From contig VYDF01000198.1 of NCBI GenBank assembly GCA_009843565.1, forward strand, positions 1 to 39,757: a DNA stretch of 39,757 bases, written 5' to 3'. The translations under genes were made by a program, and so were the position numbers. The stretch is from Acidimicrobiia bacterium. Its GTDB lineage: Bacteria; Actinomycetota; Acidimicrobiia; Acidimicrobiales; Bin134. Below the pieces are notes generated by a model, which saw only the letters and a program-made list of their open reading frames with translations, had not been told where the DNA came from and ran no database searches. Below, piece after piece: positions 1-33,080 of this stretch (position 1 is the stretch's first letter; every line of letters starts with the position of its first letter).

Positions 1-261
1 GTGTTCCTCGGCCCCATGACCAACGTGTCCTACGGCGACAAGGTGATCGGCACCAATCACACGCTGCCCACCCAGTCGGCTGCTCGCTTTACCGGCGGGC
101 TCTGGGTGGGCAAGTTCATCAAGACCGTGACCTATCAACGCGTGACCGACGCGGCTTCAAGCGCTGCCATCGGCGAATACTGCTCTCGCCTGTGCGCCAT
201 CGAGAATTTTGCCGGTCATCAGGCCCAGGCAGATCTCCGCGTGCGGCGTTACGGCAACTGA
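1..261 (+). CDS. histidinol dehydrogenase-family protein, C-terminal fragment (5' end outside window)
   Basis: The ORF is open from the window edge to TGA at 259-261. The translation ...[35 protein letters not shown]... resembles the conserved C-terminal NH-x-LPT region of the histidinol dehydrogenase family. Recognised by eye only. Confidence 0.7.
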
Positions 262-275
262 ATCTGGCAACCTGC

Positions 276-1619
276 ATGACGTTTGATCTCGTTGTCCGGG
301 GTGGGACAGTGGTGACGGCCACCGGTCGCCAACGGGCCGATGTGTACGTTCAGGACGGTCAGATAGGAGCCATACTCGATCCAGATTCCCCCGAATCGGC
401 CGATCAAGTGCTAGAGGCAGATGGGCGATTCGTGCTGCCCGGGATGGTCGACACCCATGTCCATCTGATGGAGCCGGGCGATTCGACGCGCGAGGACTTC
501 CCGACCGGAACCCGGGCGGCGGCTCGCCGGGGCGTGACTACCATCGTGGAGCACACCCACGGCTGGCCGTTGACCGACGCCGGGCGATTTGTGGACAAGC
601 GATACCACCTGCGCAACCGGTCGTATGTGGACTACGCGTTGGCGGCTCACGTTTTTCCCGAGCATGTCGGCGAGATCCGCGGTCTGTGGGAGGCCGGCGT
701 GGCGTTCTTCAAGATCTTCACCTGCGCCACCCACGGGATACCCGCAGTCACGCCCGCGACCCTGCTGGACGTCTTCCAGGAACTCGCCGATCTCGACGCC
801 GTCTGTCTGGTTCACTGCGAGGACGATGTGATGACGGCTGCCAACGAGCGCCGCCTGAAGGCCGAAGGCCGCATCGATCCCGGGGTCATTCCGGAATGGC
901 GGTCGCGCGAGGCCGAACTGGTGGCAGTGGGTTCAGCCGCGATGTTGGCCAAAGTCACTGGCGTCCGGGCCACGGTGGCCCATGCCAGCAGCGCCGACGT
1001 GGTGGATCTGATCCAGCGTGAGCGCGACGCCGGTTCTCCTCTGGTGGCCGAGACATGCCCCCAGTACCTCTATCTCCATGAGTCGGAGATCCATGAGCAC
1101 GGACCGTTTCGCAAGTTCACCCCACCGGCGCGGATTCGATCGACCGAAGACCAAGACCGGATGTGGAACGCCTTCAACGATGGCTCAATCAGCCACCTCT
1201 CCACCGATCACGCTCCGTCGACCGCGGCGCAGAAGAGGGAGGGCACCATCTGGGAGTGCCATTTTGGCCTGCCTGGATTGGATACCACTGTGCCCTTGAT
1301 GGTGGACGCCGCCCTGAGGTGACGCACATCGCTCGAGCGGCTGGTGGAGGCGTATTCCCAGCGACCCGCCGAGCAGTATCGACTGGCGAACAAGGGCCGG
1401 GTGGAGGTTGGTTACGACGCCGACCTTGTCATCCTCGATCCGCACGCAACGGGGCAGATCACCGACGAGGACGTCATTTCTCGCGCCGGATGGACGCCGT
1501 ATGCCGGCATGGAGGTGCGCGGCCATGTGCAGACCGTGCTGCTGCGCGGTCGAGTCATCGAAGAAGGGGCCCCGCCACAGGGTCGTTTCATCTCCGGTCC
1601 GGGCATCGACAACACCTAG
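276..1619 (+). pseudogene. cyclic amidohydrolase (dihydroorotase/allantoinase/hydantoinase superfamily) interrupted by one in-frame TGA at 1320-1322
   Basis: ATG at 276 (MTFDLVVRGG...). Superfamily motifs DTHVH, FFKIF, VHCED, AHASS and STDHAP are all present. The frame hits TGA at 1320-1322 and continues in the same frame (RTSLERLVEAYSQRPAEQYRL...GYDADLVILDP...) to TAG at 1617-1619. The track shows this as two ORFs (192..1322 and 1344..1619), both in frame 0. Confidence 0.7.
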
Positions 1620-1642
1620 GGTTCGGGAGCAGGGGGACTGAC

Positions 1643-2650
1643 ATGGCGCAAGAACCGCCGACGATTGATGTTCACTGTCATCTGGCCACGCCGGCGGCTG
1701 CAGAGCTGCTCAAGCCCCACGGGCGGCCCCAGGACGAGCCCTACCTCTACTTCATGGGCCAGGACTCCCGGGACCAGAACCAGGTCATGATTCCGACGAT
1801 CTTTGATGCGCTCACCAACCCGGATGCCCGGATCGAGCACATGGACGCGATGGGAGTCGACATTCAGGGTCTGGCCACGTTTGTGTCGGAATACGGCTAT
1901 TGGGCCCCGCCTGGGGTTGGCGCTGAAGCTGCTCGGGTCCAGAACGACAACTTGGCCCAAGCGGTATCCGATCTGCCCTCTCGGTTCTCGGCGTTTGGTG
2001 CCACGGTGCCCCTCCAGGACGTTGACCTGGCCATCGCGGAAATGGACCGGGTGGTTGACGAGCTTGGCTTCAAGGGCTTGCAGATCGGTGGCACCATTGC
2101 GGGCCGCAACCTCGACGAAACGGGCTTTCGGCCCTTTTGGCAGGCGGTGGCGGCCAAGGGCATTCCAGTCATCTTGCATCCGAACGGGTATGAGGAGAGC
2201 CACCGATTCGGCGATTACTTCATGGTCAACTGCGTGGGCAATCCGCTTGAGACCATGGTGGCAACCAATCGGATGATCTTCTCGGGGCTGTTCGAGGAAC
2301 TGCCTGATCTCAAATTGGTGCTGGTTCACGGGGGCGGCTATTTGCCGTTCTATGCATCGCGTTCCGACCACACTTGGGAGGTTCGCCCCGAGACCCGGGT
2401 GAACATCCCCGACCACCCGCCCAGCTACTACATGAAGCGGCTCCTGTACGACACGATGGTGTTCCAGCCGCTCTACCTCCGCCATCTCATCGAAGTGGTG
2501 GGCAGCGACCGGGTGATGGCCGGTACCGACTTTCCCTTCGATATGGGTGAGCCCGATCCCATGGGGCTCATCGACCGGACCGAAGGATTGACCGATGCCG
2601 AACGGATCGCCATGAAAGGCGGCAACGCGGCCCGGGCCTTCGGTCTGTAG
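1643..2650 (+). CDS. amidohydrolase_2 family protein (ACMSD / LigW / iso-orotate-decarboxylase-type metal-dependent decarboxylase or hydrolase)
   Basis: ATG at 1643 is preceded by GGGAGCAGGGGGA. Motifs: MAQEPPTIDVHCHL (HxH), ILHPNG, LVHGGG, GTDFPFD. The 480 nt upstream in track ORF 1163..2650 overlap the previous gene in another frame and are not coding. Confidence 0.8.
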   Translation: MAQEPPTIDVHCHLATPAAAELLKPHGRPQDEPYLYFMGQDSRDQNQVMIPTIFDALTNPDARIEHMDAMGVDIQGLATFVSEYGYWAPPGVGAEAARVQNDNLAQAVSDLPSRFSAFGATVPLQDVDLAIAEMDRVVDELGFKGLQIGGTIAGRNLDETGFRPFWQAVAAKGIPVILHPNGYEESHRFGDYFMVNCVGNPLETMVATNRMIFSGLFEELPDLKLVLVHGGGYLPFYASRSDHTWEVRPETRVNIPDHPPSYYMKRLLYDTMVFQPLYLRHLIEVVGSDRVMAGTDFPFDMGEPDPMGLIDRTEGLTDAERIAMKGGNAARAFGL

Positions 2651-3922: not shown

Positions 3923-4055
3923 CAGTTCTCCGATCAGCCACAGCCTACCGAGGCCTGCGAGCGCGTCGCCTTCCCCTGCCATCCGAGTGCATCGGGATGG
4001 CGGGCCACTTATTCTTTGCCCGACCAGTCACCGAGCCTCGCTGGGGAACCGCTGC

Positions 4056-5267
4056 ATGACATCGTCGGGGATCAACCCGCTCCAAATCGCCATCGCCGGC
4101 GGGTCCATCGGCGGGCTGACTGCTGGCGTTTTGCTTCATGAGCTCGGCCACGACGTCCACGTCTACGAGCGCTCCACCAACGCCTTGGAAGGCCGGGGTG
4201 CCGGCATCGTGGTGCTGCCCATGACCGAGCGGTATTTCACCGAGAGGGGTTCAGCGCTGGGCGAAGGCCAGGCAGGAGCGGCCGATGTGGCGCTTACGCT
4301 CACCAACTGGAGCTACGTCGATCAGTCGGGCGCCATTGTCGACGCCGCGGCGACATACAACCGATTCACATCCTGGAATACGTTGTACCGGGCCCTGCTC
4401 GAAGTGCTGCCGAGCGATCGCTATCACTTGTCCCACTACGTCACCGACTGTGCCCAGTCGGCGCAGGGTGTGACTATTTCGTTTGAGCACGGAGAGTTCC
4501 GAGACTGCGACCTGCTCGTGGCCGCCGACGGCATCGCCTCAACGGTGCGCGGCATCGTCTCTCCTCATACCACTACCGACTACGCCGGGTATGTGGCGTG
4601 GCGGGGCACCGTGCTGGAGGGCGATCTCGAACCGGAAACAGCGGCGATCTTCGAGGACGCCATGGTGTATCAGGTCCTCGACCATGCCCACTTCCTGGCC
4701 TATGCCATTCCGGGGCCAGGGGACTCGATTGTCCCCGGGGAAAGGGCGCTCAACTTCGTGTGGTATCGCAATGCGCCGGCGTCGGCCTTCGACGAGCTCA
4801 TGGTGGATCGCAACGGCATACACCGGCCCGCCACCATGCCGCCGGGCTTAGCCCAGGAGCACTTTGTGGCCGAGCTTCGCGGCGACGCATCGCGAATTCT
4901 TGCACCGCAGTTGCGCGACCTCGTCCTGGCTTGTGAGGAACCGTTTATTCAGGCCATCTTCGACATGGCCGCCGACCGATTCGTCCATGGTCGGATTGCA
5001 CTGATCGGTGATGCGGCCACTGCGTTGCGGCCTCACGTGGCGGCAGGAACGGCCAAGGCGTGCGCCGACGGATGGGCGCTACGAGACCATTTGGGCCGCG
5101 GCGGCGATCTGGATGCGGCGTTGGGCGCCTGGGAGCGCCAACAGCTCGAATTGGCACAGACCGTGGCGGCCAAGTCTCGACGCATGGGCCAAAGAGCGCA
5201 GTTCGAGTCGACGATGGTCCCCGGTGATCCCGCGTGGCGGTTCGGTCTGTTCGGACCAGGGGACTGA
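4056..5267 (+). CDS. FAD-dependent aromatic/heteroaromatic monooxygenase, 2,6-dihydroxypyridine 3-hydroxylase-like
   Basis: ATG at 4056 (MTSSGINPLQIAIAGGSIGGLTAG..., a GxGxxG fold). Also AADGIASTVR, YAGYVAWRG, NFVWY and GRIALIGDAA...RPHVAAGTAKA. The overall pattern matches the DHPH/salicylate-hydroxylase-like subgroup as I remember it. Confidence 0.75.
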   Translation: MTSSGINPLQIAIAGGSIGGLTAGVLLHELGHDVHVYERSTNALEGRGAGIVVLPMTERYFTERGSALGEGQAGAADVALTLTNWSYVDQSGAIVDAAATYNRFTSWNTLYRALLEVLPSDRYHLSHYVTDCAQSAQGVTISFEHGEFRDCDLLVAADGIASTVRGIVSPHTTTDYAGYVAWRGTVLEGDLEPETAAIFEDAMVYQVLDHAHFLAYAIPGPGDSIVPGERALNFVWYRNAPASAFDELMVDRNGIHRPATMPPGLAQEHFVAELRGDASRILAPQLRDLVLACEEPFIQAIFDMAADRFVHGRIALIGDAATALRPHVAAGTAKACADGWALRDHLGRGGDLDAALGAWERQQLELAQTVAAKSRRMGQRAQFESTMVPGDPAWRFGLFGPGD

Positions 5268-8572: not shown

Positions 8573-10315
8573 ATGAGCACGAATAGCGAGGTTCGAGACG
8601 GCATGCGTATCGACTGGGACGTGGTCGTCGAGATGGACGATGGCCTGCCATTGCGGGCCGACGTGTATCGCCCCGACGACGACGGCCAGTACCCGGTCAT
8701 TTTGAGCTACGGGCCCTACGCCAAGGGCTTGGCCTTCCAAGAGGGCTACCCGAGCGCTTGGGACCGCATGGTGGAAGAGCACCCCGACGTTGCCGCCGGT
8801 TCAACCAACAAGTATCAGAACTGGGAGGTCTGCGATCCTGAGAAGTGGGTTCCCGAGGGCTATGTCTGCGTTCGGGTGGACTCCCGCGGGGCAGGCCGCA
8901 GCCCCGGCTATATCGATCATTTCTCACCCCGGGAGACCCGAGACTTCTACGAGTGCATCGAGTGGTCCGGTGTCCAGCCGTGGTCCAACGGGAAGGTCGG
9001 CTTGTCGGGGATTTCGTACTACGCCATCAACTCATGGCATGTCGCATCGCTCCAGCCTCCCCACCTCACTGCGATGATTCCCTGGGAAGGCGCCGCCGAC
9101 TGGTACCGGGACATGACCTATCACGGCGGGATCCTGTCGACATTCTGGGACAACTGGTACGACATGCAGATCAAGACCGTTCAGCACGGTGTCGGCGAGA
9201 ACGGGGCGAGGAGCATCGTGAGCGGCGAGCTTGTGGCCGGCCCCGACACGTTGAGCGAAGAGGAACTGGTGGCAAACCGGTGCGACTTCGGTAACGAGAT
9301 CGCCTCCCATCCGCTCGACGACCAGTACCACAAAGACCGGTCACCCGATTGGTCGAAGGTGACCGTGCCGTTCTTGTCGGCGTCTAACTGGGGCGGGCAG
9401 GGACTTCACCCCCGGGGCAACGTGGAGGCCTACATCCGCGCCGCGTCCACCGAGAAGTTCCTCGAGTACCACGGCATCGAGCACTGGACCGAGTACTACA
9501 CCGACTACGGCGTGCAACTCCAGAAGCGGTTCTTCGCCAAGTACCTCCAAGGCAATGACGCCGCATGGGATGACCAGCCGAGGGTGCAGGTGCTGGTCCG
9601 CCACGTGGATCGCTTCGTGGAGCGGGCCGAGTCCGACTGGCCCATTCCCCGGACCGACTGGACCAAGCTGCACCTCGACCCGTCGAGCCAGACCTTGGGG
9701 CACGACCCGGTCACCACCGAGGGAACCATCACCTACGACGCCATGGGCGATGGTCTCACGTTCTTCTTGGCCCCGGTCGAAGGGGAGACCGAGGTGACCG
9801 GACCTTTGGCAGCGAAACTCCACATCTCGTCGTCCACCACTGATGCCGATTTGTTCTTGGTGTTCAGGGTTTTCGATCCGGAGGGTGAAGAAGTCACATT
9901 CATGGGCGCCATCGATCCCCACACACCCATCGCCCAGGGTTGGCTGCGGGCATCGCATCGCAAGCTGGACGAGTCGCTGTCGGAGGTGTGGCGGCCATAC
10001 CACACCCACGATGAGGAGCAGCCGCTGACGCCAGGGGAGGTCTACGAGCTAGACATTGAGATCTGGCCCACATCGATCGTGATACCGCCGGGCTATCGCA
10101 TCGGCTTTTCGATTCTCGGTCGCGACTACGAATGGGATGGCGATACCACCGGGTTGCATCTGTCGAACTTCAAGAACGAGCTGCGGGGCTGCGGCCCGTT
10201 CCTGCACGACGACGTGAGGAATCGCCCGCCGGAGATCTTCGACAATCAGGTCACTGTTCACTTTGGTCCCGACCATCCCAACTGGGTACTGGTTCCGTTC
10301 ATCCCCAACGACTAG
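8573..10315 (+). CDS. CocE/NonD-family (S15 X-Pro dipeptidyl-peptidase-like) serine hydrolase
   Basis: ATG at 8573 with a GGGGAG SD. Motifs LRADVYRPDDDGQYPVILSYGPY, VRVDSRG.G.S.G, nucleophile elbow GLSGISYY, and a long C-terminal beta-sandwich region. Confidence 0.85.
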   Translation: MSTNSEVRDGMRIDWDVVVEMDDGLPLRADVYRPDDDGQYPVILSYGPYAKGLAFQEGYPSAWDRMVEEHPDVAAGSTNKYQNWEVCDPEKWVPEGYVCVRVDSRGAGRSPGYIDHFSPRETRDFYECIEWSGVQPWSNGKVGLSGISYYAINSWHVASLQPPHLTAMIPWEGAADWYRDMTYHGGILSTFWDNWYDMQIKTVQHGVGENGARSIVSGELVAGPDTLSEEELVANRCDFGNEIASHPLDDQYHKDRSPDWSKVTVPFLSASNWGGQGLHPRGNVEAYIRAASTEKFLEYHGIEHWTEYYTDYGVQLQKRFFAKYLQGNDAAWDDQPRVQVLVRHVDRFVERAESDWPIPRTDWTKLHLDPSSQTLGHDPVTTEGTITYDAMGDGLTFFLAPVEGETEVTGPLAAKLHISSSTTDADLFLVFRVFDPEGEEVTFMGAIDPHTPIAQGWLRASHRKLDESLSEVWRPYHTHDEEQPLTPGEVYELDIEIWPTSIVIPPGYRIGFSILGRDYEWDGDTTGLHLSNFKNELRGCGPFLHDDVRNRPPEIFDNQVTVHFGPDHPNWVLVPFIPND

Positions 10316-10872
10316 GGCGGTCCGACCTCGAATGCTCCGATGAGCTGGGCCAATAGACCGTAGTAGCCGACCACCATCATCAACTCGACCAGGCGGTCTT
10401 GCCCGAGCGCCTCGATGGCCCGGCGGTACACATCGTCGGCAATGGATTTGTGGTGCAGGATCGATTGGCACACGTCGTAGGCGGCAATCAGATCGTCGGC
10501 GACCAAAGCGGGCCGGGTGCCGGCTCGCAGGGCGGCGATCTGCTCATCGGTCAGCCCGACGCGCTTGGCGATCGACTCGTGGGCCCACCGCTCAAACTCG
10601 CAGTCGTAGTAGGTGGCGACTACAAGGATGGCCATCTCTCGTACGGGTGCGCTGAGCTCGGTATGGAACCTCAGCGCGGCGCCGAGTTGCTGGATGACGT
10701 CTCCTACCTGGGGGCTGTAAAGCATCACGTTGAACGGTCCCACTAGGGCCCCGCTCGCATCGGTCAGCGGGAAGGAAGCATCTTTGGAGCGATCGCCTCC
10801 GGCGATGGAGTCATACAGAGCCCGCTGCTCTGGGTTGAGGTCGCCCGGGGGCAGGCCGGGCAGTCGGGCCAT
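10312..10872 (-). CDS. carboxymuconolactone decarboxylase (CMD/AhpD-like) family protein
   Basis: 186 aa: MARLPGLPPGDLNPEQRALYDSI...EFERWAHE.... This is an all-helical CMD-like pattern. Its start codon lies 1 nt after the stop of the upstream ring-opening amidohydrolase. Confidence 0.7.
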   Translation of the reverse strand: MARLPGLPPGDLNPEQRALYDSIAGGDRSKDASFPLTDASGALVGPFNVMLYSPQVGDVIQQLGAALRFHTELSAPVREMAILVVATYYDCEFERWAHESIAKRVGLTDEQIAALRAGTRPALVADDLIAAYDVCQSILHHKSIADDVYRRAIEALGQDRLVELMMVVGYYGLLAQLIGAFEVGPP

Positions 10873-10873
10873 C

Positions 10874-11971
10874 TCAGCCGAGGTCGACGATGGCGGCTAC
10901 CGATCCGCCCCCTGCGGGGCCGGATTGGAGTCCGGCCACCGAGACGAATACGGCGGGGTCTCCCAGGGCGGCGGCGGCAACGCCCCCGACGGCGCCTTTG
11001 GTGTGGTGGGTGTGGTGGATGTCGGAGTCGTTCTGCGAAACCTGCCGCCGGCCTCGCAGTCGGCCGCTGGGATGGATCTCGCACTTTATGAAGCAGTTGA
11101 CCACCCGACCGTCGAGATCCTCGGGAATTGGCCGATCGGGCAGGTCGAGGCCAGCCGATCGGATGGCCCGGTAGATGCCGGGGAAGTCGAGATTGTCCTC
11201 CATTACCGAGTGGCCCGACCGGTAGCGGCCGCCTACGCCGAGGCGATTGCCCACCACTACGACTTGGGCCTGGGTCTGCTCGACCCCCGACGAGCACGAT
11301 GCGACCGACGAGTAGACGGAGAGGTCTTTGGCGATCTGGTCCTCGCGGGGCCGCTCGATCTCGCCCAGCGCAGTGGCGATGCCCAAAGCCGACGTGGCGT
11401 TGGAGACCGCCATCGATTCCATGGTGTCCTCTAGGGCGACCGTTTGGCCCCGGGCATGGGCATCGGCAATGCGTTCAGCGGTCAGCAGCGGCGTCTTGGT
11501 CTGCACGTAGTGGACGTCGGTCGGGTCATCTATACCCGCATCGGCCACGGCCAGTTTGACCGCCTCCGCGACTTTGTCAAGCATGGGGAGGCGGCCGATC
11601 TCCTCGGGCAGAATCGGCACCGAGACTGCTTGCCCGACGGTGAGACGCTTCTCGTCCGCAGGCTCGGGGGGACCGTCCACCTTGGCGAACACCGTCATGT
11701 GGGGTGAGATCACCCCGTCGGTGCCGCCCGACCAGGCGATGGGCACATTGAGGGCCGACTCCTTGGTGTGCCCGCAATGCTCTACGAGGAAGTCGCGCAA
11801 CACCCGGTCGGCCAGGATGCGGGAGAAATCGTTGACTCCGCCGTTGCCTTCAACCTTGCCGACCACGCCGACGATCTGATCGCCCCGGAAGGCCCCCTCT
11901 GCGATGGCTTGTTCGAGCCCGGAGGTGTCGGTGACGTGTTCGAATGGGATCTTGCGCACTTCAAAAGGCAT
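10874..11971 (-). CDS. ring-opening amidohydrolase of the cyanuric acid amidohydrolase (AtzD/TrzD) / barbiturase family
   Basis: 365 aa. Family-typical strings: DTSGLE, GKVEGNGGVND, SGGTDGVISPHMTVFA, KRLTVG, LPEEIGR, VQTKTPLLT, SCSSGVE, NDSDI, GPAGGG. Length and order match AtzD/barbiturase as I remember them. Confidence 0.85.
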   Translation of the reverse strand: MPFEVRKIPFEHVTDTSGLEQAIAEGAFRGDQIVGVVGKVEGNGGVNDFSRILADRVLRDFLVEHCGHTKESALNVPIAWSGGTDGVISPHMTVFAKVDGPPEPADEKRLTVGQAVSVPILPEEIGRLPMLDKVAEAVKLAVADAGIDDPTDVHYVQTKTPLLTAERIADAHARGQTVALEDTMESMAVSNATSALGIATALGEIERPREDQIAKDLSVYSSVASCSSGVEQTQAQVVVVGNRLGVGGRYRSGHSVMEDNLDFPGIYRAIRSAGLDLPDRPIPEDLDGRVVNCFIKCEIHPSGRLRGRRQVSQNDSDIHHTHHTKGAVGGVAAAALGDPAVFVSVAGLQSGPAGGGSVAAIVDLG

Positions 11972-12026
11972 TGGGTTGACGCTCCCTCGTTTCGCTTGCG
12001 CCTAAATCTTGGCAGACTGCGGGAAG

Positions 12027-13253
12027 ATGGGGGACAGGGATCATCTCACGGACGTCGGAGCCTTCGTGCCCGACAGCGTCGCCATAAGCGGTTCGGGTCA
12101 CGGCATTTTGCAGGGTCGCAGGTTCGTGGCCAAAGACTTGTTCAGCCTCGAAGGCCATCGAAGCTCGTTTGGCCACGAGCGCTGGCGGTCGACCCATGCC
12201 GAGGCGTCAACGACCTCACCGATCTTGACCAGCATGCTTGACGCCGGTGCCGATCTGGTCGGGCTGACCAAACTGGATCAGCTGGCGTATTCGCTGATCG
12301 GCAATGTGGGAGAGGGTGCGCCTCCCCGCAACACGCTCGACGACCGGCTCTTTTGCGGCGGCTCGTCGTCGGGGTCGGCCGCGGCGGTGGCGGCGGGACT
12401 GGCCGACATCGGGTTGGGCACCGATACCGCGGGCTCGATTCGGGTGCCCGCGGCGGCGTGCGGCCTTCAAAGCATCCGGCCATCGCACGGATTGATCGAT
12501 CCCCATGGAGTAATCCCGCTGGCCCACTCATTCGACGTCGTCGGCGTATTCGGTCTTCGGGCCTCGGATATCTCCAAGGTGCTCAAAGTGCTAGCACCGC
12601 ATATCCCTGGAGCGGCCCGAACGGCCAAGGTCAAGTTTGCCGCCGACGTCTTCGATCAGGCCGAAGTGGAGACGGCGCGCGTTGGGAGAGCCGTGGCCGA
12701 GGCTGCGGCCTCGAGCCTCGGAGTGCCGTTCGAAGAGGCTGAGTTCGGGAAGTTCATCGGTGCCGACGTCGGCGACTTGTTCGCTCGGTTGCAAGGGCGG
12801 GAGATCTGGTCCAACCACGGCCGCTGGGTTGAAGAGCACGGCTCATCTCTGGCTGACGACGTACGGATGAGGCTTGAGCGTTGCGAGCGCCTCTCCCGGG
12901 ATACGGAGAGCGCCATACAGCACGACCGCACCGAGAGGTTCACATATGGCCGATCCCTCAGCGCCACCGTGGAGCCGGGAACGGTAGTGGCCCTCCCGGT
13001 GATGCTCCGGCATGGCCCGATGCGGAATTGGGATGACCGGCAGTTGACCGAGTTCAGAAGCGGGTGCTTCCGGCTGGCTGCTCCGAGCAGTCTGTCGGGT
13101 GGCCCGCAAGCGGTGTTCCCTGTCCGCCGCCAAAGCGACCTAGGGTCGGTCGGCGTTGGACTTCTCGCTGCTCCCGGCGGCGACCTGGGCCTACTCGAGC
13201 TCATGGCCTCGCTCGGGGACGACGCCCAAGCGATTCCCAGCAACTTTGGATAG
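12027..13253 (+). CDS. amidase-signature (AS) family amidohydrolase
   Basis: GGSSSGSAAAVAAGLADIGLGTDTAGSIRVPAAACG is the AS signature (Ser-cisSer), with an upstream VAKDLF lysine. Start is ATG 12027 or TTG 12009. Divergent from the AtzD/barbiturase-family gene with only ~40-55 bp between the starts. Confidence 0.8.
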   Translation: MGDRDHLTDVGAFVPDSVAISGSGHGILQGRRFVAKDLFSLEGHRSSFGHERWRSTHAEASTTSPILTSMLDAGADLVGLTKLDQLAYSLIGNVGEGAPPRNTLDDRLFCGGSSSGSAAAVAAGLADIGLGTDTAGSIRVPAAACGLQSIRPSHGLIDPHGVIPLAHSFDVVGVFGLRASDISKVLKVLAPHIPGAARTAKVKFAADVFDQAEVETARVGRAVAEAAASSLGVPFEEAEFGKFIGADVGDLFARLQGREIWSNHGRWVEEHGSSLADDVRMRLERCERLSRDTESAIQHDRTERFTYGRSLSATVEPGTVVALPVMLRHGPMRNWDDRQLTEFRSGCFRLAAPSSLSGGPQAVFPVRRQSDLGSVGVGLLAAPGGDLGLLELMASLGDDAQAIPSNFG

Positions 13254-13305
13254 GGTTTGCCCGCCAGGCGATTTCTGGCGTTCTCCGCGTGGAGGTTCGA
13301 GTTCG

Positions 13306-13734
13306 ATGGTCGACAGACGCGTGTTGCGCCCGGCTGGGGTGTGGGATCCGGCCAATGCGGGCTTCGATCATCCCCAGCCATTCTCCCAGGGCATCGTCTG
13401 TGAAGCCGGCCGGATGGTGTTCGCTGCGGGGCAGGTGGCGCTGGATGAGAGCGGGGCGGTTATTGGGTCCGGTGACCCTGCGGTCCAGACCGAGGCGGCG
13501 CTGGAAAACCTCCAGCGGGTGCTCAGCGAGGGCGGGGCGACCATGGGGGATGTGGTGCGGCTGACCGTCTTCCTCACTGACATGGCGGATCTGCCCGCGG
13601 TGCAGGAAGTACGGGCCCGGTACTTCCCCGTCGATCCTCCGGCTAGCTCGACGATTGAGATCAGCGCACTAGTTGTTCCTGAACTCTTGGTTGAGATCGA
13701 CGCCATCGCGGTGGTGGCCCCTCCAACCCCTTGA
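13306..13734 (+). CDS. RidA/YjgF/L-PSP-family protein (non-canonical: Arg105-equivalent is Ser)
   Basis: ATG at 13306 with GGAGG 10 nt upstream. Motifs FSQGIV...FAAGQVALD...GATMGDVVRLTVFL...YFPVDPPASSTIEI...VEIDAIAV. The canonical PARS is PASS here. Confidence 0.8.
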   Translation: MVDRRVLRPAGVWDPANAGFDHPQPFSQGIVCEAGRMVFAAGQVALDESGAVIGSGDPAVQTEAALENLQRVLSEGGATMGDVVRLTVFLTDMADLPAVQEVRARYFPVDPPASSTIEISALVVPELLVEIDAIAVVAPPTP

Positions 13735-13755
13735 ATCGGGGATTGCTGGTAAATT
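13731..13755 (+). promoter_or_regulatory. candidate promoter (extended -10 TGgTAAATT, upstream TTGAAT) ahead of the small ORF/DUF1989 operon
   Basis: TTGAAT at 13731-13736 and TG-n-TAAATT at 13747-13755, in the only clearly AT-rich stretch of this region. The -35/-10 spacing is short (13 nt), so only the extended -10 is credible. Confidence 0.25.
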
Positions 13756-13793
13756 TTTCCAACGAATACTGACGACTGAGCAGAGGGGGATTC

Positions 13794-13952
13794 ATGGCCA
13801 GCGATGAAGAGTATTTTCGAGAGGTAGTCGTCCGTCTGAATCAACAGCAGCTGGAGTTGGTCGACGATTGCGTTGATGAATCTGACTCCGGTAATCGAGA
13901 AGAGCTTTTGCTGCGGGCATTACGGGAATTCCACAAGGAACACTCCTCATGA
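13794..13952 (+). CDS. small 52-aa ORF, possible ribbon-helix-helix (CopG/NikR-like) protein; not in the supplied track
   Basis: ATG at 13794 preceded by AGAGGGGGA. Translation: MASDEEYFREVVVRLNQQQLELVDDCVDESDSGNREELLLRALREFHKEHSS. The pattern is strand (VVVRL), helix, loop, helix. Its TGA (13950-13952) overlaps the ATG (13949-13951) of the next gene as ATGA. Confidence 0.4.
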   Translation: MASDEEYFREVVVRLNQQQLELVDDCVDESDSGNREELLLRALREFHKEHSS

Positions 13953-14896
13953 CCGAGCGAACACTGCTGTATGAGCACATCATGGAGCCGGCCACAGGCA
14001 AGGCCGTCGAACTTCTGGCTGGGCAGGTCCTGCGAATTGAGCAGATTGGCGTGGCCGGTCAATGCGCCGACTTCAATGCCTTCAACCTCCACGATTACAA
14101 GGAGTGCTTCCACACCGGGCGCACCCGCCATATGCACGGGATGCACCCGACTACGGGCGATTTCTTGTGGTCGGCGCCGCCCCGAGACCGGCCGATAGCG
14201 GCCATCGTCGCCGACACGGTTGGAACCAACGATGTGCTGTATCCGCGGTGCAGCGGCTTGCTGTACGAATACCAGTTCGGAGTTGAGCCGCATACCAACT
14301 GCCACGACATCCAAGCCGAGGCGCAGCGGGAATACGGGCTCACCAGTGACGATGTGCACGACTCGTTCAACTTCTTCATGCACACCGGCGTCGATCAGGC
14401 AGGGCACCCCTTCATCGCCGAGAACGTGGCCAAGCATGGCGACTATGTGGAGATCATCGCCTTGATCGACCTGCTGGCCGTGCCCAACGTGTGCGGTGCG
14501 GACACCTTCGCCACCAGCAGCTTTGAGCTGAAACCGCTGCGGATTGCCATATACGACGGCTTGCCCGAAGACCTGGCTCAATTCGAGGGTCGGCCGGAGC
14601 TAGCCAAGTTCAGAAGCCAGCTCACCACGGAGGACTTCGCGGCGCAGCCCATCAAAGCTGATCGCGAGCTCTATAAGGACGAGTCCTACGTCCCGAATTA
14701 CGTCAACTATCCCATCAGCCTCACCGATGTTCCCATCAGCTTGAGCCCAGAGCACCAAACCATGCTCGATGAGCTCGTGGCAACCGGAGAATTCGGTGAG
14801 ACCGATGCCGACGTACTTCGGTACGTGTTCTTCAGCTGGTGGATCGTGAACTACATGAAGGGACCAAAGCACTTGGATCAGGCGGCGGAGGATTAG
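13949..14896 (+). CDS. DUF1989-family protein (urea/guanidine-carboxylase-associated family) with ~100-aa C-terminal extension
   Basis: GQCADFNAFNLHDYKECFHTGRTR, GDFLWSAPPRDRPIAAIVADTVGTNDVLYPRCS, HTNCHDI, SFNFFMHTG and GDYVEIIALIDLLAVPNVCGAD fit the DUF1989 pattern. Residues ~215-315 lie beyond the usual domain. Confidence 0.7.
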   Translation: MTERTLLYEHIMEPATGKAVELLAGQVLRIEQIGVAGQCADFNAFNLHDYKECFHTGRTRHMHGMHPTTGDFLWSAPPRDRPIAAIVADTVGTNDVLYPRCSGLLYEYQFGVEPHTNCHDIQAEAQREYGLTSDDVHDSFNFFMHTGVDQAGHPFIAENVAKHGDYVEIIALIDLLAVPNVCGADTFATSSFELKPLRIAIYDGLPEDLAQFEGRPELAKFRSQLTTEDFAAQPIKADRELYKDESYVPNYVNYPISLTDVPISLSPEHQTMLDELVATGEFGETDADVLRYVFFSWWIVNYMKGPKHLDQAAED

Positions 14897-14921: not shown

Positions 14922-15404
14922 ATGACGACCCATCCCATCACGGTCGAAGTCAATGGCGTGGCGTACGAGCGCTCGGTATCGCCGCGCCTGCTGCTTTCGG
15001 ACTTCCTCCGCCACGAGCTGCACCTGACCGGGACCCACGTTGGCTGTGAGCACGGCGTCTGCGGGGCCTGCACCGTTCAATTCAACGGCGAAGGAGTCCG
15101 ATCGTGCCTGCTGTTCGCGGTGCAGGCCGACGGCTCCACAATCAAAACCGTGGAGGGACTGGCCAACGGCGACAGCCTGCACCCGCTCCAGGAAGCCTTC
15201 AGCGCTGCTCACGCGCTGCAATGCGGGTTCTGCACCCCTGGCTTCCTCATGGCCATCGACTCGATGCTCGACCAGTTGTCCACCATGTCAGAGGCTGAGA
15301 TTCGGGAAGCACTCAGCGGCAACATCTGCCGCTGCACCGGTTATCAGGGCATCGTTGAAGCTGTGCAGGCCACTGTGGCCAGCCTTCAACAGGAAGGCCG
15401 CTAG
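14922..15404 (+). CDS. (2Fe-2S)-binding small subunit of a xanthine-dehydrogenase-family molybdoenzyme (CoxS/CutS-like), not adjacent to M or L subunits
   Basis: CEHGVCGACTV, CGFCTPGF and CRCTGY are both 2Fe-2S cluster motifs. 160 aa. Confidence 0.9.
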   Translation: MTTHPITVEVNGVAYERSVSPRLLLSDFLRHELHLTGTHVGCEHGVCGACTVQFNGEGVRSCLLFAVQADGSTIKTVEGLANGDSLHPLQEAFSAAHALQCGFCTPGFLMAIDSMLDQLSTMSEAEIREALSGNICRCTGYQGIVEAVQATVASLQQEGR

Positions 15405-22200: not shown

Positions 22201-23028
22201 CTAGGCGAAGACCTCGGCGTCCTCAAGGTAGCCAGATGCCTCGGTGATCTTCACCACACCGTCAAGCTCCAGCGGGGCAGTCATCCCTTTGCGGGCGTAC
22301 CACTCGCGAATCAAGGCAGGGCCATCGGTGACCAGCCCGAGGTGGAGGGAGATAACCATCAATGCGGCATCCTCAGCCTCTTGGCTTCCACCGGCCACAA
22401 TGTCGCCGGGCACGATGACCCGAAAATCTCGATTGGCGGCGTCAAAGGCAGTGGAGATTACGCAGGCATCGGTCATGGTGCCGGTGAGAACCAGGTTCTT
22501 GATGTCGAGTTGACGGAGTAAGAACTCGAAATCGGTGGGGACGAAGGCGGAGAGGCGCTTCTTGGTGCGGACGTAGTAGTCGCCTTCTTCCTCCTCGACC
22601 ATGATGTCGAGCCATTTGGTGCCTTCCCAGCTGTGCTGGTCCATCATCGGGTTTGGCGGCAAATACAGCTCGTATAGAACCCGCCAATTGGCCATGCGGT
22701 TGTACTGCTTGGAGTTCAGGTCGTCGATCCCGCCGTAGCGCTGCCAGTGCTGGACGTGGATAATCGGGATACCGACCGCCCGCGCCATACGGTGAAACAT
22801 GTTGTGAGCGGGGATCTTGGCCCGGGCCCGGGGACAAGGACAGGACAGCACTTCTTCGGGTCCAATGTGGCCGCGGTGCATGTCAATGCAGGCGATGGCT
22901 GTCTTGTCGGGGTCGAGCCAGCGATCGAATGCATCCTCGAAGTTGCTGGTGCCCGAAGGCAAAACGACGCGATCTCTACCGTCCAGATAGGCATACATCT
23001 CGGTCTTCATTGGTGGCTCGGCTTTCAT
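22201..23028 (-). CDS. isochorismatase-family cysteine hydrolase with internal insertion
   Basis: AIACIDMH (Asp), KKRLSAF (Lys) and LTGTMTDACVISTAFDA (Cys) form the D-K-C triad pattern. The start is uncertain (ATG 23028, 23010 or 22998). The track start at 23190 would overlap the upstream L gene and is rejected. Confidence 0.7.
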   Translation of the reverse strand: MKAEPPMKTEMYAYLDGRDRVVLPSGTSNFEDAFDRWLDPDKTAIACIDMHRGHIGPEEVLSCPCPRARAKIPAHNMFHRMARAVGIPIIHVQHWQRYGGIDDLNSKQYNRMANWRVLYELYLPPNPMMDQHSWEGTKWLDIMVEEEEGDYYVRTKKRLSAFVPTDFEFLLRQLDIKNLVLTGTMTDACVISTAFDAANRDFRVIVPGDIVAGGSQEAEDAALMVISLHLGLVTDGPALIREWYARKGMTAPLELDGVVKITEASGYLEDAEVFA

Positions 23029-23101
23029 TTGACTGGCTGGGTGGGCCAGAGATTCTACCGTCGTGAATTTAATCGCAATGGCAGATGAGCGCCACCAACA
23101 C

Positions 23102-25396
23102 CTAAGAGTGGTTCTGCGCTTCGAGCTGGTTGAGCACCCAATCGGGAGTGATCGGCAGGGTGCCGACCGCGCCGGGAGCGCCGAGCGCATGGCCTACTGC
23201 GGCAGCGATCGCACCGCCCGCACCGGCAATTCCGGCCTCGCCCGCCCCTTTAGCGCCCAATGGGTTCGTCGGCGTGGGGGCGTTTTCGAGAATCGCTGTC
23301 TCGATCGGCGGCAATTCGGCCGCGGTAGGGAGCAGGTAGTCCATGAAGTTGGCCGACTGGGGCTGGCCCCGCTCATCGAATGCGAACTCTTCGAGCAAGG
23401 CGCCCCCCAAGCCCTGGGCGAAACCTCCGAGCACCTGGCCTTCGACAAGCTGGGGGTTGACGGCCCTGCCCACTTCGCACCCCAGCCACACCCTATGCAG
23501 CCGCACTTGCCCCGTCTCTGCGTCGAGCGAGGCATCCACCACCACCGCTCCGTAGGGGTAGTTCATCCGCTCATCGATTCCGATCTCGCGAGCCCCGAGG
23601 CCGGGTTCCTCACCGCGGTCGGCTGATTCAAGCGTCCCGCACGCTTCGGCTATCTGGCCGAGGGTCAGCGTCCTTGCCGGGGCTCCGGCTACGTGTACCA
23701 GGCCATCGGCCAGGACCAGATCGTCGGTGGCGGCTTCGAGCAGGTCAGCGGCGATCCTCTTGGCCTTGTCGGCGGTGTGGCGGGCCGCGGCTTGCACGGC
23801 GACGCCGCCGATCACCGTCGAGCGGCTGGACCACGAACCCACCCCGTCGGGGATCAGGTCCGAGTCGCCGTAGATGACTTGTATTTGGGCCGGGTCAACT
23901 CCCAGCTCGTCGGCGGCGATCTGAGCCATCACGGTTTCGATGCCCTGGCCTGATGATGCTCCCCCGATGAACACCCGGACCGCCCCGGTGGTATCGATGT
24001 CCACTGCTCCCGTCTCGTAGAGGCCGAGCCCGCTCTTGTCCATGAAGACCGACAGGCCTACGCCCCGGTGATCCCCGTTCTCTGGCGCAAGTTCGCTATT
24101 CCACTGGGCGAGCTTCGCTCCCGCTTGGTCGATCAGCCCGATGAAGTCGCCGGAATCGAGTATGAACGACTCACCGGCCAGCTGGAACCCGGGCTCGTAG
24201 GGCAATTCGTCGGACGTGAGCAGGTTCCTCCGGCGGACTTCGGCCGGGTCGAGGCCGAATTCGACCGCGGCGACGTCCAACAGCTGCTCTCGGGCCACGG
24301 TCAGCTCGTAGCGGCCCGGCGCCCTATACGGACCCACCGGGGTCTTGTTGGTGGTGATGACATGGATCTTCGATGCGTAGGCGGGCAGTCGATAGGGCCC
24401 GGGGATCATTCCCAAGGTGAGTTCGGAGACAATCACACCGGTGGGGCGGATGTAGGCGCCCTTGTTGTGCCACACTTCCGCCTCAAGGCCAAGCAGGCGC
24501 CCATCGGTATCGAAGGCGGCCCGCAGAAGGTGGGTTTGCTCGCGGGCGTGGTTTGTGGTGGTGAGGTTCTCGGCCCGGTCCTCGATCCATTTGACCGGAC
24601 CGCCGGTGAGGATTGCGGCGTAGGCAACCAGAAAGTCCTCGGGAAAGAAGTCGCCGCGGACTCCGAAGCTCCCACCGGCATCGGTGGAGCGCATGTGAAT
24701 GCTGGCTGGCCGACGCGAAAGCAGGCGGGCCAGGACCTGTCGGTGATAGTGCGTGACGAGTGTCGCGCCCCAAACCGTGAGTTGGTCGCGGCCGGGGTCG
24801 AAGTCGCAGACCAGCCCTCTCGTCTCGAGCGGTACGCCGGAGTGGCGGCCGATCGAGACTTCCGTGGTCAACACCCGTGCCGCTTGGTCAAATGCGGACG
24901 CAATGTCGCCGTATCCCTTCTCCAGGACACAGATCTCGTTCGACGAGTCAGCCCAGAGAGACAGTTCGTCAGGGGCGCGGCGCATATCGACTACGGCATC
25001 GAGCGGGTCGATGTCGACGACCACCGTCTCGGCAGCATCCTCAGCCAGATACGGATCTTCGGCGAGAACAATTGCCACCGGTTCACCCACGTAGCGAACC
25101 CGGTCTTGAGCCAATACCGGTTGCAGTGCTCGTTCCAACCCGAGGCCGTCGAAGGGCAGCCGGAGCGGAATGGGCTCGACATGGGCGACATCAGCGCCGG
25201 TGAGCACCAAACGGACGCCGGCCATGGCCTCAGCTGCTGAAGTGTCGATCCCCACCACTTGACCGTGGGCATAGGTTGAGCGCACCGCCCTCATCCACAG
25301 TTGGCCGGGCAGATCGACGTCGTCGACAAATCGACCCGCACCACGCAAGAGACGAGGGTCTTCAAGTCGAGGTATGGAAGCCCCTACATTTCCCAT
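23102..25396 (-). CDS. molybdopterin-binding large subunit, xanthine dehydrogenase family (no adjacent M/S genes)
   Basis: MGNVGASIPRLEDPRLLRGAGRFVDD, YVGEPVA, AGGSFGVR, EVGRAVNP, AKGAGEAG. 764 aa. GGGAG SD. Confidence 0.9.
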   Translation of the reverse strand: MGNVGASIPRLEDPRLLRGAGRFVDDVDLPGQLWMRAVRSTYAHGQVVGIDTSAAEAMAGVRLVLTGADVAHVEPIPLRLPFDGLGLERALQPVLAQDRVRYVGEPVAIVLAEDPYLAEDAAETVVVDIDPLDAVVDMRRAPDELSLWADSSNEICVLEKGYGDIASAFDQAARVLTTEVSIGRHSGVPLETRGLVCDFDPGRDQLTVWGATLVTHYHRQVLARLLSRRPASIHMRSTDAGGSFGVRGDFFPEDFLVAYAAILTGGPVKWIEDRAENLTTTNHAREQTHLLRAAFDTDGRLLGLEAEVWHNKGAYIRPTGVIVSELTLGMIPGPYRLPAYASKIHVITTNKTPVGPYRAPGRYELTVAREQLLDVAAVEFGLDPAEVRRRNLLTSDELPYEPGFQLAGESFILDSGDFIGLIDQAGAKLAQWNSELAPENGDHRGVGLSVFMDKSGLGLYETGAVDIDTTGAVRVFIGGASSGQGIETVMAQIAADELGVDPAQIQVIYGDSDLIPDGVGSWSSRSTVIGGVAVQAAARHTADKAKRIAADLLEAATDDLVLADGLVHVAGAPARTLTLGQIAEACGTLESADRGEEPGLGAREIGIDERMNYPYGAVVVDASLDAETGQVRLHRVWLGCEVGRAVNPQLVEGQVLGGFAQGLGGALLEEFAFDERGQPQSANFMDYLLPTAAELPPIETAILENAPTPTNPLGAKGAGEAGIAGAGGAIAAAVGHALGAPGAVGTLPITPDWVLNQLEAQNHS

Positions 25397-25426
25397 GGTG
25401 CTGCTCCCGTCGACTTGGGCAAGCCG

Positions 25427-26950
25427 TTACGAGACCCCCACCGGACTTCCGGCCATGGCCAAGGCCAGGTCATCCATATCCAGCTCGTCCACATCCCGCT
25501 CCAGCACAACCCGCCCCCGATACATCACCGCCACGCGGTCGCTGAGCTTTAGCAGCTCATCGAGGTCCAAAGACAGAAGGAGCACGGCCGCGCCCGCCTC
25601 TTTGACTTGGAGGAGTCGGCGGTGAACGTAGTCCACCGCGCCAACGTCGAGTCCCCATGTGGGATTGTCGGCAATGAGGACCTTTGGGTTCCGCGAGAAT
25701 TCGCGGGCTAACACAACCTTCTGCTGATTGCCGCCGGAGAGGGAGCCGGCCATAAGGCCTGAATCAGCGGGCCGAACGTTGTATTCCTCCAACAAGGCGT
25801 CGGATTGTCGCCGGATTCGCTTCCAGTCGAGGAGTCCCCGACGGCTGAACTTGCCCGCGGGGATCTCGTTGATGGCCAGGTTCTCGGCCAGGGTCATGTC
25901 CAGAATCAGCCCCCAGCCGTGGCGGTCTTCAGGAATGACGGCCAAGCCGCTGTCGCGTAGACGAGCCGGCTCGGAGCCAGTCATGTCCATGCCGTCAATC
26001 CGCACAGTGCCGGACTCGAGGTGGCTAAGCCCGGTGATGGCGTTGACGACATCGCGCTGTCCGTTTCCCTCCACTCCGGCGATCCCAAGAATCTCACCGG
26101 CCCGGACCGACAGGCTCAACCCGTCAAGGGAATTGCCCCCCACCCCAGTTGTGGCCAGATCGCTTACTTGGAGTATGGCGTCGACGTCGTCTTCCAACGA
26201 CGTGTGGTCCACCTTGATGGTGCTGATCTCCCTGCCGGTCATCGCCCTGGTGAGGGTGCGTTCATCGAACTCTCCCCGTTCTACCTCTGCCACCTTCTTG
26301 CCGGCGCGAATCACGGTGACTCGGTCCGCCACCTGCGTGACTTCGGCCAGCTTGTGGGTGACCAGCACAATCGAATGCCCGCGAGAGCGCAGATCTTCCA
26401 AGATGCTCAGCAAATTCTCGATTTGCTGGGGCCCGAGCAGCGATGTCGGCTCGTCGAGAATCAGGATGCTGGCCCCGCGATAGAGAACCTTCAGGATCTC
26501 AACCCGTTGCTGAAGGTCGACCGGGAGATCGCGGACCGGAGTCGATGCCGGCATTGGCATTCCGAATTTGTCGGCCAGCGCGGTGATCTCACGACGAACG
26601 GCCAGGGGCTTGAGGCGCAGGTCTAGGACCGGGCGCGATCCGAGCACGATGTTCTGCGCCACCGTGAACGTGGGGACCAGTGAGAAGTGCTGGTGCACCA
26701 TCCCGATGCCCAGCGCGAGGGCGTCATGGGGGGATGTGATTTCGGCAGGCTTCTCTCTGACCAAGATGGAGCCGGAATCGGGCAGGACATGGCCGAACAT
26801 GACGTTCATCAGCGTGGTCTTGCCGGCGCCGTTCTCACCGAGCAGGACATGGATCTCGCCGGCCCGCAGGTCGAAGTCGATGCCATCGTTGGCTTGAACA
26901 TCGCCGAAGCGCTTGGAGATGCCCCGGAGTTCTACAACCGTCTCAACCAC
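25427..26950 (-). CDS. ABC transporter ATP-binding protein, duplicated ATPase (BMP/sugar-type importer)
   Basis: Two ABC halves. Walker A is GENGAGKTT, signature LSGGNQQK, Walker B ILILDEPT / LIADNPT. GTG start overlaps the stop of the upstream M24-like gene by 8 nt. Confidence 0.9.
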   Translation of the reverse strand: MVETVVELRGISKRFGDVQANDGIDFDLRAGEIHVLLGENGAGKTTLMNVMFGHVLPDSGSILVREKPAEITSPHDALALGIGMVHQHFSLVPTFTVAQNIVLGSRPVLDLRLKPLAVRREITALADKFGMPMPASTPVRDLPVDLQQRVEILKVLYRGASILILDEPTSLLGPQQIENLLSILEDLRSRGHSIVLVTHKLAEVTQVADRVTVIRAGKKVAEVERGEFDERTLTRAMTGREISTIKVDHTSLEDDVDAILQVSDLATTGVGGNSLDGLSLSVRAGEILGIAGVEGNGQRDVVNAITGLSHLESGTVRIDGMDMTGSEPARLRDSGLAVIPEDRHGWGLILDMTLAENLAINEIPAGKFSRRGLLDWKRIRRQSDALLEEYNVRPADSGLMAGSLSGGNQQKVVLAREFSRNPKVLIADNPTWGLDVGAVDYVHRRLLQVKEAGAAVLLLSLDLDELLKLSDRVAVMYRGRVVLERDVDELDMDDLALAMAGSPVGVS

Positions 26951-30264: not shown

Positions 30265-30275
30265 CTAGAGAGTGC

Positions 30276-31643: not shown

Positions 31644-31739
31644 GATGTCCTCTCCTGTTCAACTTTCGTTGTTGTTCGATGTTCCTATGGTCGTGGGGGG
31701 TCGCGACGGCAAGCACTTGGCGCATTTTCGTAGAACTTA

Positions 31740-31773
31740 CCCGGGGGCGGGAACCGAAGTTCCACGCCCCGGG
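31740..31773 (-). terminator. GC-rich stem-loop with UUCG tetraloop between the binding-protein gene and the triple-RidA gene (attenuator or mRNA-stabilising hairpin)
   Basis: The plus strand is cccgggggcgggaac-cgaa-gttccacgccccggg. That gives ~14 bp with two single-base bulges. On the transcribed minus strand the loop reads UUCG. There is no clear U-tract, so it is not a classical intrinsic terminator. Confidence 0.35.
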
Positions 31774-31802
31774 CAAGCCCATTGCTCAAGACCGTCGGCT
31801 GG

Positions 31803-33005: not shown

Positions 33006-33080
33006 ATCCCCCCCTAGGATTTAGGCCCTTTCGGCCTCACCACTAAATGTAGAGCGCAATCGTCGTAAGCGCCAGCGAGG

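Follow-up and report, generated by a model that had tools for sequence, protein, structure and literature searches.

The DNA analysed here (39,757 nt of contig VYDF01000198.1, hereafter the window) comes from a sponge-associated Acidimicrobiia metagenome-assembled genome (MAG) related to Candidatus (Ca.) Poriferisocius. It encodes a cyclic amide hydrolase, already deposited as a 'ring-opening amidohydrolase', whose gene is followed by one for a protein of the carboxymuconolactone decarboxylase (CMD) family. Upstream of the hydrolase lie a divergent amidase-signature (AS) amidase gene and a gene for a Rid-family protein. All four genes were found where an earlier sequence-only reading had placed them, and the several molybdenum (Mo) hydroxylases and BMP-type importer that it had reported nearby are also present within the window (Table 1). 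The island recurs, with its gene order unchanged, in genomes that bear the label Candidatus Poriferisocius, and among them the hydrolase is the island's most conserved protein, at 94-97% identity.

Active site of the hydrolase

The hydrolase matches the profile PF09663 over its full length (residues 4-363 against profile positions 1-358 of 358) at E 1.6e-128 and 429 bits (cutoff 25), and scores 440 bits against TIGR02714 (cutoff 153), which bears out its proposed membership of the cyclic amide hydrolase/barbiturase family. The same reading had called this family small and rare, a description that does not hold: with 90% identity clustering, the hydrolase has no fewer than 7,999 clusters matching it at E<=1e-20. 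Its top match among solved structures is Rhodococcus barbiturase (5HWE; E 1.7e-128, 58% identity), whereas cyanuric acid hydrolases (CAHs) match at E 2e-86 or weaker and 44-46% identity. We infer a Toblerone fold for the hydrolase from the full-length 58% identity to 5HWE. Alignment to 5HWE, 5T13 and 6BUM, a check that the sequence-only reading had suggested, found all three Ser-Lys dyads intact (Ser81/Lys39, Ser227/Lys159 and Ser344/Lys296). Arg51, the invariant arginine of domain A, and Glu231, which lies beside the central dyad, are also kept, with residue roles assigned from published work on AtzD, Azorhizobium CAH and Moorella CAH.

Peat et al. 2013 gave five positions, in AtzD numbering, at which barbiturase differs from the cyanurate enzymes. 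Cyanurate enzymes have Arg at position 195, Thr at 321, Arg at 325, Gly at 345 and Gly at 346, and barbiturase has Asn, His, Lys, Val and Ser or Ala, respectively. The hydrolase has Asn191, Thr321, Lys325, Val345 and Ala346, and so agrees with the barbiturase signature at four of the five positions, with Thr rather than His at position 321. Set against AtzD, in which the triad Arg54/Arg195/Arg325 and the pair Gly345-Gly346 give a three-fold symmetric cyanurate site, the hydrolase retains only the first arginine, as Arg51. The strings VSNATS and HHTHHTKG, which had been picked out by eye as a hint of a non-cyanurate substrate, are both present and contain the two arginine replacements (Asn191 and Lys325); together with Val345 and Ala346, these fit the published signature. 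Because these four residues match barbiturase, the hydrolase is, judged by its active-site positions, not a cyanuric acid hydrolase.

A sister subclade of barbiturase and its gene neighbourhoods

Two residue types were defined within the barbiturase class: type A, with the pattern N-T-H-K-V-A and the motif DSDxHHTHHTK, and type B, with the pattern N-H-R-K-V-A of Rhodococcus erythropolis barbiturase (Bar; EC 3.5.2.1, class VI, 5HWE). The pattern and motif of the hydrolase occur in 102 of its 120 closest clusters. Thirteen of the 120 are type B and are 67-77% identical to 5HWE, to which the hydrolase is only 58% identical. In a neighbor-joining tree rooted on two cyanurate enzymes and carrying no bootstrap support values, types A and B form sister clades, with 5HWE in type B and the hydrolase in type A. 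The B clade has one sequence with the A motif (P0103) as its basal branch, and type C, a small group from alphaproteobacteria, is nested inside the A clade. Type C sequences, from the alphaproteobacterial MAG loci L022-L024, have the motif DSDxHHTLQTK, and a family III CoA-transferase gene always precedes the hydrolase gene in these loci. (Labels of the form Lnnn denote compared hydrolase loci from other genomes, and coordinates given with such a label belong to those loci.) Placement as an ordinary barbiturase is thus not what the family tree gives; by tree position and residue pattern, the hydrolase is a member of a large, uncharacterised sister subclade of barbiturase.

Comparison of 108 type A with 78 type B sequences identified eight discriminating columns: 50 (S/T), 57, 61, 192 (A/G), 318, 321 (T/H), 322 (H/R) and 349 (Q/H). 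Five of these (50, 192, 321, 322 and 349) coincide with or adjoin Arg51, Asn191, Lys325 or the loop that binds the metal, which in published structural work follows the substrate-binding strand. Bar shares with the hydrolase the three dyads, Arg51, Glu231 and the Asn/Lys/Val/Ser-Ala specificity residues, but has His324/Arg325 in place of Thr321/His322, and the counterparts of Ser50, Ala192 and Gln349 in Bar types are Thr, Gly and His. The cyanurate enzymes AtzD, TrzD and Moorella CAH (EC 3.5.2.15) belong to the same Toblerone family and share the dyads and Thr321 with the hydrolase. The Frankia class V cyclic amide hydrolase 5HY0 is more distant (E 5.9e-58) and is, to our knowledge, a Toblerone-fold enzyme without an assigned physiological substrate; the hydrolase, in contrast, keeps the barbiturase signature. 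We know of only two substrates for the Toblerone-fold family, cyanurate and barbiturate. A third specificity might be sought in the large type A clade, where the surroundings of the active site are consistently altered and the gene partners are distinct.

Gene neighbourhoods were compared across 31 type A loci and 49 type B loci, the latter with at least 3 kb of flanking sequence. Within 8 kb of the type A gene, 20 of 31 loci encode a Mo-hydroxylase large subunit (CoxL); a Rieske oxygenase gene occurs in 8 of 31 and a CMD gene in 20 of 31, and no type A locus has AllFGH or AA_kinase genes (0/31). Type B loci show the opposite partners, with AllFGH in 15 of 49, AA_kinase in 15 of 49 and a CMD gene in none. 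Since 14 of the 31 type A loci belong to Poriferisocius-like genomes that are close relatives of one another, the counts make the associations look more independent than they are. Two forms of the type A neighbourhood recur. In one, the hydrolase gene is the last of a Peripla_BP_6-type ABC importer operon, genes for a VanA-like Rieske monooxygenase and CoxL-CoxS-CoxL-CoxM come next, and an AndAc-like Rieske dioxygenase is encoded near the operon; in the other, the hydrolase gene is translationally coupled to a CMD gene. Some loci combine both forms.

Outside the window, type B genes sit in a recurrent operon of Bar-AllH-AllF-AllG-CoxM-CoxS-CoxL (XdhA-like) and an unknown 252-aa protein, often with CoA-transferase, carboxyltransferase and carbamate-kinase-like AA_kinase genes upstream. 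This operon looks like a complete oxidative pyrimidine operon that includes a candidate uracil/thymine dehydrogenase, and the AllFGH-type transcarbamoylase would cleave ureidomalonate in place of a hydrolytic 'ureidomalonase'. The literature searched contained no gene assignment for either uracil/thymine dehydrogenase or ureidomalonate cleavage, and the operon offers gene candidates for both. Annotated plasmid records of the family carry cyanurate-type genes only, plus two unannotated Bar-type copies from actinomycetes.

The CMD-fold partner and other neighbouring genes

The CMD gene is translationally coupled to the hydrolase gene, its ATG starting 1 nt past the hydrolase TGA (ggcTGAgATGgcc; TGAgATG). 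This junction, which had been taken to signal a functional link, recurs well beyond the window. It reads TGA(N)ATG in Poriferisocius, and in four further lineages the two genes overlap (GTGA or ATGA), so that every lineage having the pair shows a spacer of 0-1 nt or a 4-nt overlap, down to 65% identity for the Bar-type protein and 42% for the CMD protein. About five lineages carry the pair (the 94-97% identical group, L010, L011, L012-14 and L021/L035), and it is the only association kept beyond Ca. Poriferisocius. This conservation of the junction indicates that the two-gene operon is an evolutionarily conserved unit and that the pairing is probably functional. A GGAGG-type ribosome-binding site, also kept in the Poriferisocius relatives, lies ~10 nt upstream of the hydrolase ATG. 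The stop codons of the CMD gene and the convergent CocE/NonD-family hydrolase gene overlap by 4 nt in the palindrome CTAG (10312-10315), leaving no space for a terminator between them, and a scan of positions 9800-14200 for promoter and terminator consensus sequences found nothing.

The CMD protein scores 35.9 bits against PF02627 (cutoff 23), and no NCBIfam equivalog was above cutoff. Its AlphaFold2 model (pLDDT 95.6) has the all-helical AhpD/CMD fold, and Foldseek aligned it to AhpD/CMD structures at a template modeling (TM) score of 0.7-0.8 and 12-16% identity. A sequence search of the PDB gave no match at E<1, and the Foldseek matches were limited to AhpD-like or uncharacterised CMD structures that gave no functional clue. 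Arg3, Glu79, His98 and Tyr171 are invariant in its homologues. The protein shares its fold and a Glu/His pair with AhpD and with PcaC (4-carboxymuconolactone decarboxylase), but it lacks the CxxC pair of AhpD and has a single cysteine, Cys91, that is Ser or Ala in homologues. Since the AhpD cysteines are not conserved, a role as an AhpD-type alkylhydroperoxidase was ruled out. The carboxybiuret decarboxylase TrtB was also considered and ruled out, as TrtB is AtzH/HpxZ-like and only the CMD family was detected here.

The arrangement nevertheless resembles known systems. TrtB, the decarboxylase partner of AtzD, forms one family with AtzH and HpxZ in a 126-position alignment (PMC12625717 Fig. S11). 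In AtzD with TrtB, and in AtzD with AtzEG/AtzH, an enzyme dealing with the carboxylated ureide likewise comes directly after a Toblerone-fold ring opener. The partner described here differs in being a 186-aa CMD/AhpD-fold protein paired with a barbiturase-class rather than a cyanurate-class enzyme, and the Bar-CMD arrangement may therefore be viewed as analogous to AtzD-TrtB without being the same system. The pair could reveal a first function for this CMD subfamily.

On the other side of the hydrolase, the longest open reading frame (ORF) of the AS amidase starts at 12009 and the public gene model, 100% identical in sequence, at 12027, the latter leaving a gap of 55 nt to the hydrolase start in which no sigma-70 consensus was found. 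The amidase scores 144.8 bits against PF01425, and its catalytic triad (Lys36, Ser113-114 and Ser137) is intact and invariant in 119 homologues. Its scores fall far below the cutoffs for named enzymes: 124-127 bits against AtzE models (cutoffs 426-461), 114-120 bits against allophanate hydrolase (AtzF) models (cutoffs 487-511) and 278 bits against PRK08310 (cutoff 391). Adjacency of amidase and hydrolase is confined to Ca. Poriferisocius, where, at 66-83% versus 94-97% for the hydrolase, the amidase shows the lowest conservation in the block, and no homologue at ~50% identity was near a Bar gene in the loci examined. In other lineages its place upstream of the hydrolase is taken by an EamA transporter gene, as in L011, or by a gene for a triple-Rid protein, as in L012-14. 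The amidase instead heads a separate same-strand string of ~10 kb, reaching to 22187, that encodes the amidase, the Rid protein, a DUF1989 protein, a 2Fe-2S subunit, an alpha/beta hydrolase, an old yellow enzyme (OYE), CoxM, CoxS, CoxL and a short-chain dehydrogenase/reductase. Thus the divergent, nearby amidase of the sequence-only reading stands as a gene with an intact triad, and the pathway link drawn from it is genus-specific. Its proximity makes it a possible downstream hydrolase.

Equally good candidates for that role are the CocE/NonD-family hydrolase and the CN-hydrolase. The CocE/NonD gene is the next most conserved neighbor of the Bar-CMD pair, at 81% identity in L011 and, in L012 and L014, at 73% identity and no more than 9 kb away. 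The Rid-family protein had been described as RidA-like, but the catalytic arginine of the imine deaminase RidA (Arg105 in E. coli) is missing: the protein reads PASS where PH0854 and YabJ have PAR, and it scores 81 bits against TIGR00004, below the cutoff of 106. In six Poriferisocius relatives, a gene for an ATPase with AAA_14 and DUF4143 domains, absent from the window, lies between the Rid and amidase genes.

In all, the Mo-hydroxylase genes of the window encode three large, two FAD and two 2Fe-2S subunits, and the window also contains the BMP-type ABC importer. The window's CoxL proteins fall in a group resembling carbon monoxide dehydrogenase (CODH) and glyceraldehyde dehydrogenase, and all three are 28-29% identical to the XdhA-like subunit linked to type B. 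The best matches to the hydroxylase set linked to type A are CoxL2, FeS1 and the FAD subunit CoxM2, and CoxLa, the subunit that CoxL2 matches, adjoins type A hydrolase genes in other Acidimicrobiales. CoxL2 is the candidate for the enzyme that would make the trioxo ring.

Table 1. Positions of the genes and other features discussed (window coordinates unless a locus label is given)
Feature	Position	Strand	Details
Cyclic amide hydrolase, type A barbiturase class	10874-11971	-	365 aa; MYH72293.1; PF09663, TIGR02714
CMD/AhpD-fold protein	10312-10872	-	186 aa; MYH72292.1; PF02627
Divergent intergenic region, hydrolase/amidase	11972-12026		55 nt
AS amidase	12027-13253	+	408 aa; public model 'hypothetical protein F4153_06935'; PF01425
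Rid-family protein	13306-13734	+	142 aa; MYH72295.1
CocE/NonD-family hydrolase	8573-10315	+	convergent with CMD gene
Mo-hydroxylase large subunit CoxL2	23102-25396	-	47% to type-A-linked CoxLa
2Fe-2S small subunit FeS1	14922-15404	+	59% to CoxS of type-A-linked set
FAD medium subunit CoxM2	36822-37664	+	56% to CoxM of type-A-linked set
CN-hydrolase	35959-36825		precedes CoxM2; 62%-identical homologue in L017 type A cluster
String with importer and catabolic genes	22201-35098	-	
Triple-Rid protein	30276-31643	-	455 aa
FAD monooxygenase	3987-5267	+	
Allantoinase/hydantoinase-like ORF	192-1322	+	
ORF with Amidohydro_2 domain	1163-2650	+	495 aa
AAA_14 + DUF4143 ATPase	L001:7316-8596	-	426 aa; also L002, L003, L007, L009, L029
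Triple-Rid homologue	L012:8543-9856	-	
bar-allHFG-coxMSL operon	L036:9001-18407		also L051, L055, L064, L069-L071 and others

Candidate substrates and the wider island

With slightly better than even confidence, we read the hydrolase as a barbiturase-class enzyme of an uncharacterised subclade; in this reading it would open barbiturate or a substituted barbiturate that the CODH-like Mo-hydroxylases make from an N-heterocycle brought into the cell, and the CMD protein would act on the opened product. By homology to AtzD, CAH and Bar, three pseudo-symmetric pockets would hold the three ring carbonyls of the substrate. Ser227, activated by Lys159 and Glu231, would attack the carbonyl held by Arg51, and the resulting acyl-enzyme would then be hydrolysed by water. 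The other two pockets (Asn191, Lys325, Val345 and Ala346) appear barbiturase-like, which argues for a barbiturate-type 2,4,6-trioxo-pyrimidine ring rather than cyanurate. Thr321/His322, Ser50, Ala192 and Gln349 differ from Bar, as do the gene partners (CMD and CODH-like hydroxylases here; AllFGH, carbamate kinase and an XdhA-like hydroxylase for Bar types), so the substrate is probably a barbiturate made by another route or one substituted at C5 or N. The CMD protein would act on the ring-opened malonyl-ureide, most simply, though this step is more weakly suggested, by decarboxylation. The rationale is that the barbiturase reaction is reportedly reversible, and a coupled irreversible step would pull ring opening forward. 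An amide hydrolase, whether the AS amidase, the CocE/NonD hydrolase or the CN-hydrolase, could then release urea or ammonia. Such a route points to symbiont recycling of nitrogen-rich heterocycles in sponge holobionts.

Several observations weigh against this reading. The differences between type A and Bar could be neutral, which would make type A an ordinary barbiturase, and Thr321 is also the state found in cyanuric acid hydrolases. The link to a given Mo-hydroxylase consists of proximity and 47-59% identity, with the subunits spread over 23 kb in the window. The CMD gene is absent from many type A loci, and a CMD homologue in Actinomadura, 42% identical, has no Bar neighbor. A decarboxylase role for the CMD protein is suggested by analogy, and we know of no need for a decarboxylase in the case of ureidomalonate. 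The AAA_14/DUF4143 insertion in six relatives further indicates that the island is mosaic.

Among the other explanations, the sequence-only reading had taken the genes to be consistent with a related pathway or with a complete oxidative pyrimidine pathway running from uracil through barbiturate and ureidomalonate to urea and malonate, with a Mo-hydroxylase as uracil/thymine dehydrogenase, an ordinary barbiturase and the AS amidase as ureidomalonase. Its barbiturase step survives in the Asn191/Lys325/Val345/Ala346 signature, the window does hold Mo-hydroxylases and a BMP-type importer, the amidase next to the hydrolase has an intact triad, and a distant AS amidase lies 3-4 kb downstream in some true Bar-type loci (L061, L073, L108 and L114). 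However, the hydrolase falls in the sister clade and not in the Bar clade, the AllH/F/G, AA_kinase and XdhA-like CoxMSL partners of Bar types are absent here (the window's CoxL proteins reaching only 28-29% identity to the XdhA-like subunit), the amidase is adjacent in a single genus with homologues elsewhere unlinked to Bar, and the conserved CMD partner is left unexplained. The complete pathway is therefore not the best reading, and we judge it unlikely. We see a similarly small chance for a proposal in which type A enzymes hydrolyse substituted barbiturates that true barbiturase refuses, each forming a two-enzyme unit with a CMD-fold decarboxylase of a new kind that renders ring opening irreversible. 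Thymine, for example, could give 5-methylbarbiturate as the substrate, and modified bases could give N-methyl- or 5-hydroxy-barbiturate. If true, oxidative N-heterocycle catabolism would have a second branch, so far undescribed, in the genomes of several sponge-associated Acidimicrobiales.

A cyclic imide or amide of non-pyrimidine origin, for example a polyhydroxylated pyridine such as 2,4,6-trihydroxypyridine or a citrazinate-like compound, would suit an island for pyridine-, picolinate- or nicotinate-type substrates. Enzymes typical of N-heteroaromatic catabolism occur in the island and in type A neighbourhoods, namely CODH-like Mo-hydroxylases (often with two large subunits per set), a PRK07236-subfamily FAD monooxygenase (424 bits, cutoff 333), Amidohydro_2 proteins, an isochorismatase-family amidase, OYE reductases, an AndAc-like Rieske dioxygenase and VanA-like monooxygenases, and the active-site surround is unlike that of Bar. 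This support is a matter of context, whereas the residues that touch the ureide/methylene ring and set Bar apart from the cyanurate enzymes (Asn191, Lys325, Val345, Ala346 and Arg51) are kept and we know of no Toblerone-fold enzyme with activity on a pyridine ring, which makes such a substrate rather improbable. We give almost no credence to a cyanuric acid hydrolase, the name that automated annotation supplies: the NCBIfam equivalog NF052395 'cyanuric acid amidohydrolase' passes on the hydrolase (417 bits, cutoff 360), and UniRef gives its orthologues the same name. The arginine and glycine replacements and the far stronger match to barbiturase than to any CAH speak against it, barbiturase is published as not hydrolysing cyanurate, and no equivalogs of the biuret/allophanate pathway were found nearby, with the isochorismatase-family amidase scoring 56 bits against BiuH (cutoff 370). 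These names are wrong for the hydrolase's class, and systematic misannotation of class VI enzymes as cyanuric acid amidohydrolase is probable. Upstream substrates named from context were also considered (methylated purines, thymine, picolinate/homarine and lumichrome), and none was supported well enough.

The minus-strand string of the island interleaves the BMP-type importer genes (two permeases, a binding protein and an ATPase) with catabolic genes for the triple-Rid protein, two Mo-hydroxylase large subunits, an M24 hydrolase and the isochorismatase-family amidase. Uptake and oxidation of one substrate class appear to be co-transcribed. The triple-Rid protein consists of three tandem Rid/L-PSP repeats, with the PAR arginine only in repeat 2, and its AlphaFold2 model is a single-chain pseudo-trimer (pLDDT 95.0, pTM 0.94). 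Its best full-length structural matches are the chorismatases 5AG3, 5A3K and 4BPS (TM 0.63 on the target), and a profile-profile comparison with the Toblerone family gave no signal. The triple-Rid family comprises 147 representative clusters at E<=1e-30, mostly of 410-470 aa, and the gene of a homologue lies divergently beside the Bar-CMD pair in L012-L014.

Toward the start of the window, the FAD monooxygenase is distantly HpxO-like and belongs to a subfamily that includes hydroxypyridine and hydroxynicotinate monooxygenases, which hints that the island may also handle pyridine- or purine-type rings. For the allantoinase/hydantoinase-like ORF, the match to its best model covers just positions 1-342 of 441, and this ORF is overlapped by the 495-aa ORF, in which the Amidohydro_2 domain begins at residue 168. 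A frameshift, truncation of the gene or a wrongly placed ORF start could account for this arrangement.

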